Positions 1 through 16,260 of a stretch of DNA of 64,000 bases are shown here, in pieces (within the stretch, counting starts at the first letter, position 1; every line of letters begins with the position of its first letter). Both the position numbers and the translations under genes were made by a program. The notes beneath the pieces were generated by a model. That model saw nothing but the letters and a program-made list of their open reading frames with translations. It had not been told where the DNA came from and made no database searches. This DNA comes from Podarcis bocagei (lineage: Eukaryota): assembly GCA_964188305.1 (NCBI GenBank), contig OZ076886.1; one strand, written 5' to 3'.

Positions 1-164
1 CCCCCCTTGCTCTGAGCACTGGCTCCCCTTTCTGTGAATCTTCCGATTCACTGGAAAGACTCGGAGATCTCGGGCCGCTGTCATCGCTCATATTTCCTTC
101 GGATTCCTCCCCCTCGCTCTCTGTTTCCTCCCTTTCCTGTGCCTCTGCTCCTGAACCCCTGACA
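1..164 (-). repeat. 3' LTR, partial (start of U3)
   Basis: Direct repeat of 5813-5976 (C/T difference at 100 vs 5912). Starts TGTCAG on the minus strand immediately after the PPT. Confidence 0.96.
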
Positions 165-178
165 TCCATCCCCCCCTC
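165..178 (-). other. Polypurine tract
   Basis: Minus strand GAGGGGGGGATGGA directly abuts the TG of the 3' LTR. Confidence 0.85.
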
Positions 179-3100
179 GAAGCCCCCCCTTCCCCCCTCC
201 CCTCCTCCAGGCGTGGGTGTAGGGTGCTCCGTTGTTACGGGGGTAAGTGCCGGATACAGTTCGTTTCCCGTGGCGTCCATCCAACTGGACAAGTCCGGCT
301 CTTCTTCCCTGCACTCGCCGACGTCGATCTCCTCTGCTTCCATCTCTGTGCCGCCGTGCTCGAACCCAAGGTCCTCCCCGAACACGTCCATGTCCGTCTC
401 GTCATCGGTCCCTCCTGGGGGCGTTGCTCGCCCGGGACCCTCCAGCCACTTCCTGCGCCACTGTTCCTCTGGTCGATCATCCCACCAATACGAGGGTTCT
501 GAGGCAGATCCCGAGGGTGACCCCTCCGGGGAGCGTGTGCCCAGTGTCGGCTCCTCGTCCGAGTCAAACCCCCGGAACGTGCTGGCGGAAAGCGTGGGTG
601 TGAAAAGCCAGTCGTCGAAAAACTCGGCTGGCATGGGTCTGTGTGGGAAAAGGGCATGAAACTCGTCTTTGAGCAGAGGTTCTTCCAAAGCGTAGCCCGG
701 CACCCAGCTGTTGGCACTGGCTGGGGTGCCCTCTCTGGCGAGAAGGTATTCTACTCCCTCTTCCCCCCATCTAGAGTCTAAAATCTCTGTGACCTCATTG
801 ATGGGCTCCCCCGCTGGCGACCCCCCCTGCGTGGTCCTTTCCCTGAGCGGGCTCGGTGCCGTCCCCGGCTCTTGAAACCTGTGAGGTGCCTTGTAGGGAG
901 TGAGCACTGATCTATGGAATACCGGATGCATCCTGGATCCCTCCGGAAGTCTCAGCCGGAAAGCCACCGGATTGACCTGTGCCTCGACATGGTAGGGCCC
1001 CAGCTGCTTATGTCCGAGCTTCTTTTTCGCTAACGATCTGGCCGGCACTGCCTGGGCTGCCAACCAAACCCAGTCTCCCACCTGTATTTCTTCCCCAACC
1101 CTCCTGTGTCTGTCAGCCTGCAGTTTGTATGCGTGCTTAGCTAGCTCTAACTGCCTTCGAAGCTGGTCATGGACCTCCTGCAACTCTGACGCGAAAGCGT
1201 CCGCTGCCTGTGGCTCCCCCTCCCCCACTCTCTCTAGTCCCGGGAAGGTTCTGGGATGCCTCCCATTGTTGGCGAAGAACGGCGTCACCCCGGTGGACAC
1301 GTGCTTCGTGTTGTTGTAGGCGAACTCGGCGAGTGGCAGGTAGTCCACCCACGTTGCAGGCTGTTGATTTGCGTAACATCTCAGGTACTGCTGCATGATG
1401 GCATTGACCCGCTCCGCTTGTCCGTTGGTCTGCGGGTGTCTCGCCGACGCTAGGTTGATCTTGACGTTCAGGATGCCCATCAGCTTCTGCCAGAAGTTCG
1501 AGATGAACTGTCGCCCCCGGTCGGACAGTATAGACCGAGGCAGCCCGTGAACCTTGAACACGTGATCTATGAACAGTTTGGCGGTCTGTTCCGCTGTGGC
1601 CACCTTCGCACACGGAATGAAATGTGCCATTTTGGTTAACAAGTCCACCACCACTAGCACTGCTGTCTTGCCCCTCAAGCTGGGCAGATCCGTGACAAAG
1701 TCCAGGGCCACCCTCTCCCACGGTTCGAGCGGAGTTTGTAGCGGTTCCAGCAGTCCCGCCGGCGGTTTATGCACTGGCTTAGCCCTCTGGCAGGTGTCGC
1801 ACCTCGCGACGTAATCCGCTACCTCCCCCCGCATCTTGGGCCACCAGAAGTCTCTGGCGACTAATTCTATCGTCTTTTCTGTGCCAAAGTGCCCGGCGGT
1901 GGGTGCGTCGTGCAACTGCTGCAGTACCTTGGCGCGGAGGTCGTCTCCCGGCACGTAGAGGGCCCCTTTGCGGATGAGCAACCCCTCGCGTATCTGGAAC
2001 TCGTCGCCCTTCGCCGTGCCTCTGTGCACCTCCTCCATCTTCGCTCGTGCGAAGGAGTCTTCCTGCAGCGCGCTACGTACAGCATCCAGGTCTACGGTTG
2101 CCGAAGCGCACGCCCACGCTTCTGGTGCGAAAATGTGCTTGGCCGCCGCTGGCGTCGCCTCCTCGAGGTATTGCGGCTTCCTGGACAGTGCATCCGCCAT
2201 GACGTTGTTGTCACCAGGGACGTACTCTATCCTGAAGTCGAAATCCGCAAAGAACTCCGCCCAACGTATGTGCCTCTGGTTCAGGAACTTCGCCGTGCGC
2301 CAGTACTCCAGATTCTTATGGTCCGTGCGGACCTGCACTGGGTGTTTGGCTCCGATCAGGAAGTGCCTCCACGCCTTGAATGCTGCATGAATGGCAAGCA
2401 ACTCCCTGTCCCAGATGGCGTAGTTCTGCTCCGACTTGCTGAGCTTCCTGGAGTAGAAGGCGCACGGCCTCCAATCCCCATGCGGGTCTTGCTGCAACAG
2501 GACTGCTCCCACGGCTCTGTCTGAGGCGTCTGTTTCAACCCTCATCGGTTTGCCGGGATTTACATGCAGTAGCTGCTCTTCGGACGCGAAGAGACGCTTG
2601 AGTTTCCGAAAGGACTGCTCCGCCTGCTCCGTCCAGATGAATTTCTTCTTCTTGGAGCTGAGCGTGTCGGTAATGGCCGCTGTCTGCATCGCGAACCCTT
2701 TGATGAACTTGCGATAGAAGTTGGCAAAACCGACAAACCGCTGGACCTCCTTCCGGCTGCGCGGGCTCTTCCAGTCCAACACTGCGCGAACCTTGGCGCT
2801 GTCCATGGCGAGCCCCTTGTCCGACAATTTGTAGCCCAGGAAATCCACCTCCGTCACGTCGAACTGGCACTTCTCCAGCTTGGCGTACAGTCTATGCTCC
2901 CGTAGCCTTTGCAGAACTTCCTTGACGTCACTGTTGTGAACCTCCTGAGATTCTGAAAATATCAGGATGTCGTCCAGAAAGCAGACACACTTCTTGTAGA
3001 GGAGCCCCGCTAACACGTGATGCATGAAAGCTTGAAAACAGTGGGAACCATTTTGTAATCCAAATGGCATAACTCAGTACTCGTAGGTGCCCAGGGGTGT

Positions 3101-4032
3101 GAACATCGCCGTCTTCCACTCGTCGCCCTCCCGTATGCGAATAAGGTTGTACGCCCCTCGCAGATCCAACTTGGTGAACACGCGTCCCTTGCGCACCGTC
3201 GCGAGGAGGTCGTCGATTTTGGGCATGGGGAAAGCTGTGGGCTTGGTTTTCGAGTTCAAAATCCGATAGTCCACCACAAGTCTTTTCTGGGGCGTGTCCT
3301 TCTTCCTCACAAAGTATACGGGACTGCCCCCCACTGCCTTGGACTCCCGGATGAATCCGCGCTCCAAATTATGATCTATGAACTCCCTGAGTTCCTGCAT
3401 CTCATCTTCAGACATGGAATACAGTTTCCCTGTCGGCAGCGTCGCCCCTGGCAGGAGGTCAATCTTGCAGTCATAGGGCCTGTGGGGAGGCAGCTTGTCC
3501 GCCTCCTTCTCGCAGAAAACTTCCAAAAATTCTGCGTACTTGCGGGGGACTGCTTGCAGCGTGCCCAATTGCAGCTGTGCGTCCTCTTCTTCCCCCTCCG
3601 GTCTGGACAGGATGCAGTGTTCTGCACAGTAAGAGGAGCCGAAGGTTAGTTGCCGCTGGTACCAAGCCAACGTTGGACTGTGCCTGTCCAGCCAACTCAT
3701 GCCCAATACTATAGGCGTGTCCGACAGCTGGGTGACATTAAAGCTGATGACTTCTCTGTGATTGCCAATTTGCATCACCATCGGTGGCGTTTGCTTCACC
3801 ACCTGCCCCCCTAGCAATTCCCTGCCATCCACTGTGACAACCTTCAGGGGCAGCGTGGCTGGCAGTAGCGTTATATTGTGCTGCTCGATGAAATCCTGTC
3901 CTATAAAGTCCGCGTTGCTACCAGAGTCAATGGTAATTGGCACTTCCATTGTAAGTCCATTGGGTAGCTGGAGCGATGCGGTGAGCTGCACTACTGGTTT
4001 GGGCGGGAGGGGGTCTGTGGGCTGCAAAATCT

Positions 4033-4105
4033 CTGGGGACTGCTTCACTGACTCGTCTGGCTGGGCCCCAGTGCCTCTGTTTCCAGCCAGACTCCGTCGT
4101 TTCCC
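4033..4105 (-). promoter_or_regulatory. Programmed -1 ribosomal frameshift signal (G GGA AAC + H-type pseudoknot)
   Basis: Heptamer 4105-4099 in the gag frame, 6-nt spacer, 10-bp stem GTCTGGCTGG/CCAGCCAGAC, loop CTGGGG complementary to downstream CCCCAG. pol is in the -1 frame. Confidence 0.85.
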
Positions 4106-5121
4106 TGCTGTGGTTCTCTCTGCTGAGTTGCTTCTGTTACCGTCGCGGAGGCTGCAGTGTGCTTGTGGAGCCTCTGGGGACACTCTTTCACCATGTGCTG
4201 AGGACTGTCACAGAGGTAGCACTTCCTGTTCCCTCTAGGAGGCTTCGCTTTGACTGCTCCCGGTGCTAGGGCTCTGGTTGCTGATTGAGCCCTGGCACCT
4301 CCAACCTCCATAGGTTCCCCCCCTCCTCCTGGCGGAGGCGTGGAGTGCGCACGCGCTGCATCCCTGGGAAAGAAGGAAGGTGCTCTTGCCGCCTCACGTC
4401 CTCCACGCCCTTCGTCCCTGCTCCATGGACGGTCTTCTAGCCGCACCCCAATCGTCAGCGCCCTCTGAACGATCTCCTGAGTACTCCGGGGTCTCTCCCC
4501 CCTCGCAATTTCGTCTTTTACTGCACTGTTCAAACCTTCCCAGAAAAGGTCTCTGACTGGAGCTGAATCTTTGTCCCATTCCAGTGCACTGACCAGTGCA
4601 AAAAAGCGGGAATGATACTGCCTTACACTGGCCCTCCCTTGTTTCAGCCCATGTATCTCTTTTCTGGCGATATCAACGTCTATATTTGATAAAAAACACG
4701 AATCCATCGCTTTAATGAAGGCATCCGCACTTCGGAGTGCCGGATCCTTATCTCTCCACAGATTGCGCAGCCACGCTTTAGCGTCTCCATGCAAATGGGA
4801 TAGAATAAACCCCACCTTCTCTTGCTCATCTCTAAAGTCTTTGTCCAGCAGTTGCAGCGCAAACTGCACATCTGCTCGGAAGTTGGGGTACTGCTGTAAA
4901 TTCCCATCGAAATGAGATACAAGGCTGCCTCCTCTTCTCCCCAGCCCAATTCCCTCCGATTTGGGTCCCGGTTGCCCCTGCTTTGTAAGCACTTCCAACC
5001 TGACTTGGAGATCCTTGTAGGCGGCGGCCGTTTCTTCTTCCCTCTTCCTGGATGCGAGTATCTCAGTGTTTAGATGTGACACTGCATTTTGCAGGGCTGC
5101 TATCTGCTGTTCAGTATTCAT
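4045..5121 (-). CDS. gag: Gag (coiled-coil N-terminus, retrotransposon capsid, CCHC zinc knuckle), 358 aa from the first ATG
   Basis: Open ORF starting MNTEQQIAALQ. Capsid-like LHGDAKAW and QGRASVRQYHSRF...LFWEGLN; knuckle CYLCDSPQHMVKEC. Confidence 0.92.
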   Translation of the reverse strand: MNTEQQIAALQNAVSHLNTEILASRKREEETAAAYKDLQVRLEVLTKQGQPGPKSEGIGLGRRGGSLVSHFDGNLQQYPNFRADVQFALQLLDKDFRDEQEKVGFILSHLHGDAKAWLRNLWRDKDPALRSADAFIKAMDSCFLSNIDVDIARKEIHGLKQGRASVRQYHSRFFALVSALEWDKDSAPVRDLFWEGLNSAVKDEIARGERPRSTQEIVQRALTIGVRLEDRPWSRDEGRGGREAARAPSFFPRDAARAHSTPPPGGGGEPMEVGGARAQSATRALAPGAVKAKPPRGNRKCYLCDSPQHMVKECPQRLHKHTAASATVTEATQQREPQQGNDGVWLETEALGPSQTSQ

Positions 5122-5208
5122 CTCGTCCGACTTTCGTGAGCTCGCAAAGCACCAATCTTCACCCCTCGCTGCGTCCACTCACGCTGCGAGGCTTTTGGTG
5201 CAACTGGG

Positions 5209-5218
5209 GACGGAGCTT
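5209..5218 (-). other. Self-priming-type primer binding site
   Basis: AAGCTCCGTC lies 2 nt after the LTR, has no TGG, and is perfectly complementary to GACGGAGCTT at 5366-5357 inside the LTR. Confidence 0.8.
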
Positions 5219-5220
5219 AC

Positions 5221-5976
5221 TGTCAGAGCTGCTTCCAGGTCCCAGCTCACAGAGGACCACGCTAGCCGGTATTACTGTACAAAAGTCTTTATTGAGTTAC
5301 AAGTTCCATTTTCAAGCCGCAGCGTGCAGCTCTACGTCTTAGAAGCTAGACCAGCGAAGCTCCGTCTGAGTCTCCGCCTCCTGTACACCAACTTAATACT
5401 CTAGCCTTACTCCACCTCTTCCTTCTTCCCTTCCTCCTCTGGGTCCCTCTACCCCCCGTGGTCTCTTCCTTCCTGGACTCTTCTGACGCCAACCCCCCGG
5501 ACTCTGCTCCCTCTTTGCGGCGGGCTTTAGGACCTGGCTCCCTATCCGGACTGCTTACTGTGCCGCCTTCCTGTGCATTTGAACTTGGCGCGCGCGCGCA
5601 GCCTTCGACCTTCCTCTTGACCGTTTCCTCGCTCCCCGATGGAGGTGTGGCCAATCCTAACTCCTGCCTTCCCGCTTGCGGCGAGCCGCCAGCTCCCGAT
5701 GCCTGCGACCCCTCCCCCCTACTGTGCTCTGGTGGGGAAGCTGGTCCCGATTTCCAACTGCTGCTCTCTGAGTCTCCTCTGGTCCCTTCTTCCTGGTGTG
5801 TCCCCCTAGGCGCCCCCCTTGCTCTGAGCACTGGCTCCCCTTTCTGTGAATCTTCCGATTCACTGGAAAGACTCGGAGATCTCGGGCCGCTGTCATCGCT
5901 CATATTTCCTTTGGATTCCTCCCCCTCGCTCTCTGTTTCCTCCCTTTCCTGTGCCTCTGCTCCTGAACCCCTGACA
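5221..5976 (-). repeat. 5' LTR, 756 bp (TATTAA 5398-5393, predicted TSS ~5366, AATAAA 5293-5288)
   Basis: 6-bp terminal inverted repeat TGTCAG/CTGACA, identity to 1-164, and promoter and poly(A) signals in the correct order. Confidence 0.93.
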
Positions 5977-7261
5977 CCAACTAAAACTACCTGATAAGAG
6001 CGCTGGCTAGGGGTGGTGCAGGCTTAAATACTCTACACTTGCCCCACTCCCAGCTAGCATCTGGTTGCAGTGTGCACTAGGTCACTCCTGACCACATGCC
6101 TCCAAATCCATCGAGGAACCAGGCACAACACTACCCCACCAGGAGGGTAAAAATCCTTCCTTTTGCATTCATATGGATGCTTTATCCCTGTCTACAGAGA
6201 AAGCATGTTGTGTGATGTATGAGCTATCAGAGGATATTGATGTTGTTCTACAAGGAGCAGTTCCTCTCCACCCATGAAGGGATTCTAATCATGAAATGAC
6301 AGGGTGAGCCCCCACCTGGAACCAAATCCCTCAACCTGCAATTATAGTCTATTAATATTCCATTACACTCTCTTATTAAGTAAAGTTTTCCACCACCAGT
6401 TTCTGAGAAGCATTTGGAAAACATTTTATCTTAATAAGAATAACCCATCATGCACAGAAAACTGGGAGACTTCTCATTATCACACTCCCTTTATGGGAGT
6501 TTATCTCTTTGCAGCTGCCACTCGTGAATTCCACACTGTCTGGCTCTGGAAAATAGATCGTTTTGATGGGTGATTTTGAGTGACAAAGGCAGAGAGGGGT
6601 CACGGAACATGCCAGGAGAAAAGCCAATCAAATAGAGATGCAGAATGGGCTAAAGAGCTCCTAGGAGTCGTGCACTGAACATTGGCACCTCTGATTGGCA
6701 TTAACATGCTTTGCTTGCTTCAGGGCCTCTTTAAAATGCCATTTGCATTGATGATAGTATAATTGACATTGCTCCCTAAGGAGGACTAATGGATTGTGGG
6801 AAGCTGAAATCTCAGAGAAGTCCTGCAATTCGGGGAGCTGGATCTCTTGATCACTCCAATATAATTTAGAGGACTGGGTTGTGCTGAATAAGGACAAGGA
6901 ACAACCCCCCTATTTTGTTCCAGTTTTCAAGGAGCATTCGTATTAAATCCAACCAGACACTTCACTCCTAATACCACTTTGTTTTACTGGCTGGTGGACT
7001 GCCTGATTTTATGGCTTACGTTACTCCCATAATACGGCACACATTAAATTTTTACAGTGACGTTATAAAATGCAAACTGTTAAAGGCGGCCTTCATTATT
7101 ATTTCTGCAGTGAAATTTCAGCCATATTACCACATTAGCAATAGAATCCTGAAGGCCAGATGTCAGTACCTGCATGCAAAGCAACCCTTGATGTGCTTAA
7201 TTTATTTTTAAGAGATTGGAAGAATAATGCAAGAGGTGGAAAGTGAGTCAGTAGATGACAT

Positions 7262-7885
7262 AGCCTGGATAGCTCAGTTGGTTAGAGCATTCTTCTTCTT
7301 CTTTGGCGATCACTTGTAGCTGAGTAAGATCGTCTTCCATAAACATGGTTTTAACAATAGTCCGTAAGTGATTGTGGAGGCCAATTCTGGACCCACACGT
7401 CCTTCCACAGCAGGGATATTGGTTCCCGGTTGGGAGTTGATCATGGTGTGGATTTGCCAAGCGTGCCTTCCTCTTAGCACGTTTCTCCCTTGGGTTCTGA
7501 GTTTGAGTGTCTTCAAAGTCCACAACACCTTTGGTAAAGGCTGTTCTCCAACTGGAGCGCTTGCAGGCCAGTGTTTCCCAGTTGTTGGTGTTTATACTAC
7601 ATTTTATTATTATTATTATTTGCCTTGAGACAGTCTTTAAACCTCTTTTGTTGATCACCAGCATTACACTTTCCATTTTTAAGTTCGGAATAGAGTAGTT
7701 GCTTTGGAAGACGATAATCAGGCATCCGTACAACATGACCAGTCGGACAAAGTTGATGTTGAAGAATCACTGGTGATCTTATGGTGCTGATAATGTCAAA
7801 GTTGCAGGTTCATTCCCCGTATGAGACAGCTGCATATTGTTTGACTAGATGACCCTGAGGGTTCCTTACAATTCTATGATTCTAT
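7262..7885 (+). mobile_element. tRNA-derived SINE with CR1-like 3' tail, split (7262-7290 and 7782-7885) by an RTE insertion
   Basis: A-box TAGCTCAGTTGG; continuation TGGTGCTGATAA...GCAGGTTCATTCCCC; tail GACTAGATGACC...TTCTATGATTCTA. Related copy at 28741-28863. Confidence 0.7.
7291..7775 (-). mobile_element. RTE-clade LINE, 5'-truncated 3' end with (GAA)n tail
   Basis: Translation TGHVVRMPDYRLPKQLLYSEL...KRFKD...WETLA...RSSWR...CGRTCGSRIGLHNHLR, typical of an RTE ORF C-terminus. Confidence 0.85.
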
Positions 7886-8269
7886 GGTTTGCTTTGCTTA
7901 TTTGCCATAAAGAGTGGATTCTTGACCACATGTTTTATTATTCTGTGATAATATAATAATAATTGTCATTGGCTAAGAAGCAGCAAGAACCAGATGGACC
8001 AATGAAAATGACTTCTTTGAAATTCAACTTGATAGTTTGGGTCCCTATCAAAGAATCATTGGAAGCTGATAGTAGACTCTACATGAGAAGCAGACATTTC
8101 CCCACTAATGAGTGTTTAGAAACTCAACAGTAAGAACAGAGATGCGACTTTGTAACCACCATCTCAGCTGCTATTGGCCATTCAGGAGCGCGTCTTTGGC
8201 TTTCAGACCAACCAAGCATATAGAAATATGTCTTGGGACAGAGACATCAAAGTTATTCATACAGTAAAT

Positions 8270-13500: not shown

Positions 13501-14653
13501 TTTGTGAAAGGGCGCAAAACTGTTGGCAAAAGGGTGTGTGGCAGTCTTGAGAGTGTAAGAAGCAGGAACACATTGCTGTTGCCAAGGGAAAGGAGGAGAA
13601 GGAATGTTCAGGCCAGGGAAACCTAAGTGGAGATGGTTGAATAGTATGGCTGAGTTTGAGGATGGCATTGAGTTGTGTGCAGTGAGGAAAATGCTGGGTG
13701 TTCTGAGCATGGAGCAGGAAACACTATTGTTAGCTGGATCCCACCTGATGACTCCAAGAGTTGCACAACTTGATCAATGATTAAATCCATAGCAATATCA
13801 AAAGTTCTAAGAGACCATGTCAGACCATACTTTTCTCCCTTCTCCTTTCCCTACTCAGCTCTCTTACTACTCATGAAAACAAATGGACAGTTTACCACAC
13901 TGCTAGTTTTACTGAGGATAACACGTTTTTAAATGGAACCACCACCTCTGCAGCATCTACTCTGTAAAACAGAGTTTAAAAACAGAGAAATGATGTATGA
14001 AGCAGAAAGGAATATGGCCCATTGGCTAGGCAGCTGCATGGCCGCAAAGAGAGTTGAAATTCCACCACAGTCCATGTGACTGAGGGCACTTTTAAGCTAC
14101 TTGTTTATGGAGCACTCATGCTTTGTATGCAGGGAGAATTGATGACACTGGCTGCTTAACGAGCATTGATTTAGAATCATTTGTGGGGAGGCAAGATAAA
14201 GTTGCATCAAAGCAAGTGTTATCCAGGACATTTCCAACCCACTTTACTTATGGCAAAAAGTCTGATCTTTTGGAGAAGTGGGTTGGTTGTGCAAGACCTT
14301 CCAATGGAGTATAATTGTGCAACCTGTACTTACCAGTGTGTGATTGAATCTCATCTGAAAATAGCAGCAGTCTGGAAGCAACCTGAGTTTCTATTTTAGC
14401 CACAGTAGCTCAACTGTAAGTAATGTGGAAACAACAGTGATTCAGTGAATTATGATGCCTAGACTATTAGATTTTAATGTGGGAAACTCAGATTCATAGT
14501 CCCATTCAACCATGAAGTTCATTGACTAACCTTGGGAAAGTGACTATCTTTCAGCCTTTCAGAGGATGAGTATTATACGAGAGAACTCCCCATGCATGGG
14601 AGGAAGGAGGGTTATCAAACAAATGTAAGTAAGGTCTCACAGAGTCATTTTTG

Positions 14654-14656
<3 letters not shown>

Positions 14657-14703
<47 letters not shown>
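14657..14703. repeat. (TA)n microsatellite, left flank of the Penelope-like element
   Basis: Direct observation. Confidence 0.95.
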
Positions 14704-14707
<4 letters not shown>

Positions 14708-14784
14708 CTTTCGTAGATTTTCACGGGTACAGGAATGCAGGTTTTGGTGTCTTCGGGTGTCTTCCCGTGTAAGAGTTGGGGTGT

Positions 14785-14829
14785 CTAGGCGACGTTTCGA
14801 CGAGGTCTCACTCGTCATCTTCAGGCTGG
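14785..14829 (-). ncRNA. Minimal hammerhead ribozyme motif (inverted pLTR copy)
   Basis: Exact reverse complement of 15748-15792. Confidence 0.7.
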
Positions 14830-15094
14830 TGCTTTCGGCTTCTTGTTACTAGAACAGAGCAGGATCTCAGTGTTTGAGTTCCTATAAATACTGTTGAGGG
14901 GGTGTGGTGTATAGCCTCCAACGTTCTGGGCAGAGAGGGAGTTCCCAGGTTAGTGTGCCTTTTCTTCTTTTGTTCCTTAATTACTTGAGGGATATCTTGA
15001 GTGATTTCTTGAGTGATATTCTGAGTACCACTTAGGAGGGTCATTAGGTGTGGATTAGTTGCTAAAGCTTTCGTGTCTTGACCTCTTGAGCTTG

Positions 15095-15515
15095 AGCGGA
15101 ACATCACCACAAGAGAATAATCATGGAAGCCATCGAGATAGAGAAACACCCTCACAACATGAACAAGCGTGACGACACGTCCCGCCTGCCAGACATCTGG
15201 AAATTAGCCCTCCCCACAAAAACCGACACCAGAACCAGAGACACACAGAACGCCATCTCCAATCAACCACACCAGACCCAAACCCAGACCCTCTCCACAG
15301 ATAAAGTACAGACACCATCCAGTAGCCAAACCATAGTGGCACCTCCGGATGCTGCACCCCCCTGCAATCCCTACACAGATCTGGCTGGCACAGGGCACAA
15401 AACCACAGCTCGCCCCTATACACGAAGCCAAGCCAGAGCACAACTAAGTGCAGTACAGCCATCTTCTCAGAAAAACTCTTTACAAGCTCAAGAGGTCAAG
15501 ACACGAAAGCTTTAG
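15095..15515 (+). pseudogene. 3' fragment of the Penelope-like ORF (end of GIY-YIG endonuclease + T/Q/P-rich tail)
   Basis: ORF-track 15123..15515; E-A-I-x-I...N-x-N-x-R-D-D...L...W pattern. Confidence 0.8.
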
Positions 15516-15747
15516 CAACTAATCCACACCTAATGACCCTCCTAAGTGGTACTCAGAATATCACTCAAGAAATCACTCAAGATATCCCTCAAGTAATTAA
15601 GGAACAAAAGAAGAAAAGGCACACTAACCTGGGAACTCCCTCTCTGCCCAGAACGTTGGAGGCTATACACCACACCCCCTCAACAGTATTTATAGGAACT
15701 CAAACACTGAGATCCTGCTCTGTTCTAGTAACAAGAAGCCGAAAGCA

Positions 15748-15792
15748 CCAGCCTGAAGATGACGAGTGAGACCTCGTCGAAACGTCGCCTAG
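15748..15792 (+). ncRNA. Minimal hammerhead ribozyme motif
   Basis: CTGAAGA-T-GACGAG(tgagac)CTCGTC-GAAAC-GTC: core CUGANGA, 6-bp stem II, GAAA, GUC cleavage triplet ending at 15786. Confidence 0.72.
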
Positions 15793-15837
15793 ACACCCCA
15801 ACTCTTACACGGGAAGACACCCGAAGACACCAAAACC

Positions 15838-15840
<3 letters not shown>

Positions 15841-15884
<44 letters not shown>
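15841..15884. repeat. (TA)n microsatellite, right flank
   Basis: Direct observation. Confidence 0.95.
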
Positions 15885-15890
<6 letters not shown>

Positions 15891-16260
15891 TAAATGGATT
15901 CCATCACTGTAGACAGTAATAAGAATGAATTGCCAAGTGATGTATCTTTTCTGAATGTTTGACTTTATATTTTCAAAGATATTCTCTGTCCTCCTGGACA
16001 AATAATCTCCACAGTGGCTTGCACCCATTTGCCCACACACCCAGAAGGAAGACTCATGAGAGAGAGCTGGAACACTAGGTGGAGGAACTGTAAACCAACA
16101 GTAAATCAATTAACCAGCTAATTCAGGTAGAGAAGCCTCCCTTAGGCATGTGTTGCAGGTGTAGGCTGTGGCTCCCCATTGATGGATGGGGATGAATTAA
16201 CTTCCTCCTTGCTATTTCAGTCTTGGAGCTGAAACCAGCACGAGCAGCTAGGCCCCACTG

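Follow-up and report, generated by a model that had tools for sequence, protein, structure and literature searches.

In HIV and MMTV, nef and sag are coding sequences that lie within the 3′ LTR as separate genes on spliced RNAs and are not fused to pol. In the plant CRM group A chromoviruses, by comparison, pol itself extends into the 3′ LTR, as set out in the available text of two reports (PMC3059260, PMC3605345). These elements are Ty3/Gypsy chromoviruses concentrated in satellite-rich regions, and the same partial texts describe a CR motif, located downstream, that replaces the canonical cage chromodomain. Integrase C-termini set the insertion target in several systems, and the available parts of the respective papers describe this for the CRM CR motif (PMC3059260), for Tal1 of Arabidopsis lyrata (PMC11735389) and for yeast Ty5 (PMC4700185). 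The integrase C-terminal region or targeting domain of Tal1 and Ty5, both Copia elements whose mechanisms were tested, directs centromeric or telomeric insertion, and those parts report no LTR overlap. In Ty1, likewise a Copia element, the integrase C-terminus is large and disordered and contains both a nuclear signal and a short segment for targeting (PMC8487063, PMC7459421, PMC2490736; available parts); this module is not LTR-encoded and serves Pol III gene targets. At a broader scale, a centromere atlas available in part (10.64898/2026.09.17.752431) reports that satellite arrays of various taxa are enriched in Gypsy elements; its main text as available contains none of the words lizard, Podarcis, chromodomain or CR motif.

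Here we examine a Ty3/Gypsy chromovirus of the wall lizard Podarcis bocagei with a pol frame that also enters the 3′ LTR. Because the CRM group A polyprotein frame does the same, the layout is not unprecedented. An earlier note on this DNA had pointed to HIV nef, MMTV sag and foamy bel as known cases of U3 overlap and had held that Gypsy pol normally ends at or near the polypurine tract (PPT). CRM group A, where it is the Gypsy pol that is extended, is the closer precedent and an exception to that rule, going by the portions of PMC3059260 and PMC3605345 available. Our search of the literature, which left Repbase reports and subscription journals outside its scope, found no paper on this lizard family.

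The element takes up the opening 6 kb of the window, by which we mean the whole 64,000-nucleotide stretch analysed, and the complete copy spans G000:C2:87109409-87115976. It has the features of Ty3/Gypsy elements (gag followed by protease, RT, RNase H, then integrase in the order of the Pfam matches, TG...CA LTRs, a PPT and a short target-site duplication) and the chromovirus feature of a chromodomain at the integrase C-terminus. We refer to the family of the window element as A, to its young sister subfamily as B, and to two distant related families as C and D. The annotated features, all on the minus strand, are as follows.

1..164 (−): 3′ LTR, first 164 nt of 756 bp; the remainder lies left of the window at G000:C2:87109409-87110000
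165..208 (−): G-rich polypurine tract with runs G4, G6, G7 and G7, reading GGEGGRGGFEGG; run lengths differ among copies
164..634 (−): integrase tail ahead of the LTR (157 aa), acidic and clustered in W/F; omega 0.15-0.20
656..796 (−): chromodomain, degenerate; match to PF00385 at E 4e-4, under the cut-off; omega 0.05-0.07
2..3073 (−): pol past the internal stop (RT end, RNase H, integrase with H2C2, rve and SH3, chromodomain, tail; Pfam)
3074..3076 (−): in-frame TGA within RT, at which the pol of the window copy is broken
3077..4207 (−): first part of pol, protease and RT start (Pfam)
4045..5121 (−): gag, 358 aa, Ty3 capsid and CCHC knuckle; overlaps pol in a different frame
5221..5976 (−): 5′ LTR, 756 bp, TG...CA
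5346..5975 (−): the 209-codon frame as repeated in the 5′ LTR, including its TAG; TATTAAG at 5398, AATAAA at 5293
5977..5981 (−): target-site duplication GTTGG, 5 bp

A tRNA primer site usually starts with TGG; the minus-strand sequence that follows the 5′ LTR (window 5196-5220) begins with GTAAGC. Elsewhere, window 14641-15927 holds a perfect 360-nt inverted repeat (14735-15094 / 15483-15842) with (TA)n runs outside it, resembling a young non-autonomous DNA transposon.

The earlier note had proposed, from the window alone, that pol does not stop at the PPT and reads on through the whole U3. The minus-strand frame 2..3073 is indeed open across the PPT to the window edge and contains the peptide quoted there. 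Window positions 1-164 repeat 5813-5976 at 99%, with position 91 equivalent to 5903 and an ATG at both. Extending leftward, the real 3′ LTR (G000:C2:87109409-87110164) shows 3 mismatches to the 5′ LTR in 756 nt, and in its translation the pol frame reaches a TAG at LTR nt 629. The anticipated tail of about 160 acidic and aromatic plus about 209 LTR-encoded residues was recovered as a 157-aa pre-LTR stretch (38 D/E and 16 aromatic) and exactly 209 LTR codons ending RRKGRRKRW...ASPV. The proposal that the frame passes the TATA element and stops just inside R survived in part: the LTR carries TATTAAG (nt 579) and AATAAA (nt 684), and the U3/R boundary and the TATA role are putative. Single-cell RNA reads, of low depth and mixing copies and subfamilies, gave no splice joints and no transcript start or end sites, so we infer rather than observe that the frame covers the whole U3 and stops inside R. 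The stop within RT and the copy-to-copy variation in G-run length are both absent from the earlier note.

Selection on the LTR frame was estimated by pairwise codon models. The pol frame showed the lowest dN/dS among the six frames in 20 of 21 pairs, the pairs being non-independent. Maximum-likelihood omega for the LTR part was 0.36 (p 3e-6) and 0.39 (p 5e-6); by comparison, the integrase core gave 0.08-0.09, the stretch before the LTR 0.15-0.20 and the chromodomain 0.05-0.07. The middle third is weakly constrained, at a non-significant 0.52-0.58 (p 0.06-0.12). Among six other natural LTRs (77-95% identity), five retain exactly 209 codons and one carries a 1-nt insertion, and the stop falls at codon 210 in 95 of 126 distinct full LTRs. 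Purifying selection on the frame, which the earlier note had proposed as a check across subfamilies, is thus borne out, and the 209-codon length holds down to 77% LTR identity. For families C and D the LTR-frame omegas of 0.50 and 0.47 (p about 0.06) are not significant on the short distances available, and in D the antisense frame is lower, at 0.29.

The earlier note had itself raised chance openness as an objection, pointing to an open antisense frame. The DNA is purine-rich and T-poor, and the antisense frame with the same wobble position is open in the window copy with an omega of 0.50-0.57. Such a value is expected, because a wobble-sharing frame shadows the constraint on the pol frame, and stops interrupt this antisense frame in L312, L132 and L308, three of the eight copies tested. 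Against chance stand the probability of 209 open codons at this composition (0.004-0.009), the fixed length, the third-position excess between A and B LTRs (62 differences vs 29 and 35 at the other two positions) and the same phase in three families. That the frame is open fortuitously, or as a side effect of constraint on promoter or antisense sequence, we regard as already disfavoured and highly improbable. On the codon patterns, the LTR frame is very likely coding and under selection.

The variable G-runs bear on whether this frame is joined to pol in each copy. In family A, 13 of 28 parsed copies are in phase, 6 of them reaching nt 629, and 15 are out of phase. Slippage (or assembly error) appears to have occurred after insertion, because three duplicates of one insertion differ in G-tract length. 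Contigs of a public run, which may come from the same sample, contain a G-run one base shorter at about 12% depth. For subfamily B, phase was counted with a protein query upstream of the G-runs. The 1561-aa full frame was the commonest state among the 150 copies sampled (82/150), next to a 1376-aa short form (14/150) and other lengths (54); 24 of the best 30 copies were in phase, and 15 of the 54 B copies near chromosome ends (see below) were not. Three leads were discarded. A DNA search with a short-tract copy returned 30/30 out-of-phase copies, which the protein queries upstream of the tract showed to be query bias. Many 1370-1373-aa family-A frames on C19 are non-independent, as the 14 checked share one flank. 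Ribosomal frameshifting on the G-runs was rejected as the normal mode, since in-phase copies are commonest in B and C and duplicates vary in tract length. Judged by phase, the LTR frame is likely fused to pol.

Sister families read through in the same phase. In family C, about 54% identical in pol, 27 of 30 copies read through for 115 or 125 codons; the stop is at LTR nt 347, and a variant LTR is 30 nt longer, in frame. In family D, about 42% identical to C over the searched region, 26 of 31 frames (30 loci) read through for 115 or 109 codons, the variant being an in-frame 18 nt despite an LTR length range of 538 to 689 bp. The LTRs of C and D (L193:1071-1526 and L303) have no AATAAA, ATTAAA or TATA-like match, and in family D a 42-bp tandem repeat follows the stop codon. 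A quick tree, from which 8 of 32 rows including four fish proteins were left out, grouped A/B with C and then D as one lizard clade. The tail is longest in A/B, at 157+209 aa vs 80+115 in C and about 16+115 in D.

Similar tails are found in protein databases. Proteins of Podarcis muralis in UniRef carry the same tail at 65-83% identity, with others ending right after the junction, and P. muralis proteins match the sister families in the P. bocagei genome at 98-100%. One of them, UniRef100_A0A670KNJ5, an automatic annotation named 'Gypsy retrotransposon integrase-like protein 1', shares the tail over the whole region at 77-83% identity, although its name is silent on the LTR overlap. Further away, Pol of fish Gypsy chromoviruses (Labeo, Cirrhinus P0013, P0014, P0018) appears to cross the GGG.V junction, P0013, P0014 and P0018 ending on a shared R..SPEF motif about 20-25 residues past it. 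Compared with the lizard tail, this extension is shorter by a factor of five to ten and lacks an acidic spacer; the SPEF ending may represent an abbreviated version of this read-through.

Among the 209 LTR-encoded residues, the first half is acidic and the second basic. Both the pre-LTR and the LTR parts fall on the disordered side of the charge-hydropathy line, a call that rests on composition. AlphaFold run on the single sequence was set aside as uninformative about disorder (pLDDT 45), since it missed the chromodomain itself. The LTR-encoded part and the tail match no Pfam family, and ESM Atlas returned no usable match for the tail. In A, B and C, and likewise in three further relatives, the tail closes on a basic patch followed by [VIL]L.W. 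The codons for this ending differ (GTA TTA AGT TGG in A, CTT CTA TGC TGG in C), so that TATA-like DNA encodes it in A and not in C; it is therefore probably a protein motif. The family D tail is without the basic patch and [VIL]L.W and ends RRSARLK. Other tail motifs are confined to A/B and persist in relatives at 58-59% identity. The motif HxLxP, a putative shelterin-binding site, also occurs in other families.

The chromodomain upstream of this tail is altered. In A/B, N, R and T stand opposite the Y, W and F cage positions of CBX5, to which the A chromodomain aligns (the first position being read from flanking sequence). The three-aromatic cage by which Group I chromodomains are defined in PMC3605345, as far as its text is available, is thus absent, though the domain is under strong constraint (omega 0.05-0.07). 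Families C and D score over the PF00385 cut-off; D keeps all three cage residues and C keeps W.

The A/B clade is concentrated at chromosome ends. On placed contigs we counted 54/136 B and 27/53 A copies within 1 Mb of an end, compared with 1/96 in C, 7/124 in D and an expected 2.6%, each set being the best 150 of about 7,500-8,200 candidates, from which C19 and unplaced matches were dropped. Most of the clustering falls on a single end of each chromosome. The window copy itself is interstitial, at 87 of 120 Mb. At about 200 kb inside the ends of ten chromosomes, A/B DNA or satellite was present at 8/9 predicted ends and 0/9 opposite ends; C1, for which no end was predicted, had it at one end. 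An AT-rich satellite of about 500 bp occurs in 11/54 near-end B loci vs 0/30 for C and 0/30 for D, and among the 150 of 265 matches listed it fills the corresponding ends of C4, C7, C8 and C16. It is also seen at L321:4166-10000 (C7 end), L383, L387 and L105, with 38% GC and a dimer period of about 1000 bp. This satellite, filling one end of many chromosomes, is a candidate centromeric satellite; it was not matched to pLHS, pLCS and pGPS, the Podarcis satellites catalogued in the available text of PMC7397244. Because Lacertini mostly have 36 acrocentric chromosomes, according to the portion of PMC10654178 available, the enriched end is probably the centromere end. The 3′ flanks of L215, L230, L351 and L358, and also of L371, L375 and L385, place B insertions from different chromosomes at different offsets in one dispersed, about 99%-identical chromosome-end repeat.

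In our preferred reading, to which we give a probability of roughly 0.55, the LTR-encoded frame forms part of a long, predicted-disordered integrase tail with a basic nuclear-import patch and a tether to the satellite-rich, probably centromeric chromosome end. The pol frame, continued through the PPT and the 209 LTR codons, would be translated and would stay on integrase. Since the 3′ LTR belongs to the genomic RNA, the LTR could do double duty, its upstream part coding in the 3′ copy and acting as promoter in the 5′ copy. The basic patch and [VIL]L.W, common to the dispersed family C, may serve nuclear entry or a general contact, by analogy with Ty1 nuclear entry (PMC8487063 and PMC2490736, available parts). 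The parts particular to A/B, namely the longer acidic/aromatic spacer, the longer LTR part and the altered chromodomain, would set the target and anchor the integration complex on chromatin of the satellite-bearing end. The end clustering of the A/B clade fits such a targeting role. LTR coding alone does not explain it, as C and D read through and are nevertheless dispersed, and on our analysis the odds that the tail itself does the targeting are slightly short of even. The earlier note had suggested an integrase-fused disordered targeting or activation tail. Our best reading is a tail fused to integrase, disordered by composition and basic at its end; we found no evidence supporting activation.

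The tail could instead be a real integrase extension, acting in nuclear import or particle function, that does not choose the target. Because C and D carry read-through tails without clustering, the cage-less chromodomain or the integrase core could equally set it; the A/B chromodomain has lost its cage residues under tight constraint, and in Tal1 a single residue can switch integrase targeting (PMC11735389, available part). We consider this somewhat unlikely, as the tail is longest in precisely the clustered clade and the A/B-only motifs have been kept in distant relatives. A nef- or sag-like accessory protein, released by protease cleavage or started at the pre-LTR ATG, is a further reading. 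Because that in-frame ATG (167-169) comes after the G-runs of variable length, copies that are out of phase still retain a 211-aa frame. At the junction, however, family C has GTG in its place and D lacks an ATG ahead of the LTR start, both keeping the pol phase, and the RNA reads, at their low depth, show no splice joints; a separate protein is improbable on these grounds.

Other explanations concern where the elements sit. The A/B clade could be drawn, as Ty5 is, to telomeric or subtelomeric chromatin and not to centromeres. A/B-like DNA is present in 13/20 terminal 10-kb stretches, with C or D in none, and adjoins telomere repeats at 5/11 non-enriched ends. Full A/B elements and solo LTRs lie within (TTAGGG)n with GTTAG on both sides (L331:953-7499; L335:1-10000; L325; L328; left-end coordinates of these loci are on the reverse strand). 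The only vertebrate telomere-associated element named in the available text of PMC10088271 is the non-LTR Tx1 of Anolis. On the other side, only one end per chromosome is occupied at 200 kb depth, and telomeric flanks account for 2/50 readable flanks of near-end B copies. Some telomere-adjacent copies have junctions common to different chromosomes, suggesting spread by exchange. A telomeric preference is accordingly unlikely. The clustering might also reflect even insertion followed by retention or local duplication in low-recombination ends. Matches that are mostly solo LTRs are less clustered, with 6/38 within 1 Mb of an end, and duplicated insertions exist: on C19 (L179-L192), which has large amplified segments and numerous copies of every family, a single family-A insertion recurs at least 14 times with the same flank, and three C16 copies share one flank. 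Yet C and D match B in youth, with LTR pairs 99.1-100% identical, and are not clustered, and 45 distinct flanks were found among the 50 of 54 near-end B copies with a readable flank, 15 of the near-end copies being nested in A/B-clade elements. Retention or duplication as the main cause is improbable.

A tether at the integrase C-terminus would place the lizard element beside Tal1, Ty5 and Ty1, from which it differs as a Gypsy element with an LTR-encoded module. With plant CRM group A it shares the chromovirus class, the frame into the 3′ LTR, the lack of a canonical cage and the concentration in satellite-rich regions, as far as the CRM texts are available. It differs in keeping a degenerate chromodomain upstream of the PPT, in its vertebrate host, in a centromere position that is putative and in having related families that read through without clustering. 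On the features tested, chromodomain position and host, it would not be a CRM member, the CR motif being judged from that position and not by direct sequence comparison. More speculatively, and with considerable doubt, a vertebrate Gypsy clade may have converged on the plant CRM design, with the cage lost, a 360-residue tail gained and insertion at centromeres, such that elements and satellite together form the wall-lizard centromere ends. If so, more than half of that tail would be LTR-encoded, and the dispersed, shorter-tailed sister families would be natural controls.

Together, these findings place a known design, coding in the LTR, alongside clade-specific clustering at one chromosome end, and this pairing is the new interest. 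Few examples of retroelements finding centromeres are understood, and these come mostly from plants. In the lizard, three related and recently active families share an LTR-encoded tail, and only the longest-tailed, cage-less one crowds one end of each chromosome. Comparing A/B with C/D offers a natural route to the targeting determinant in a vertebrate and makes centromere-directed integration testable. The A/B element is a candidate marker for wall-lizard centromeres, and an LTR under protein-coding constraint matters for dating and annotating such elements.
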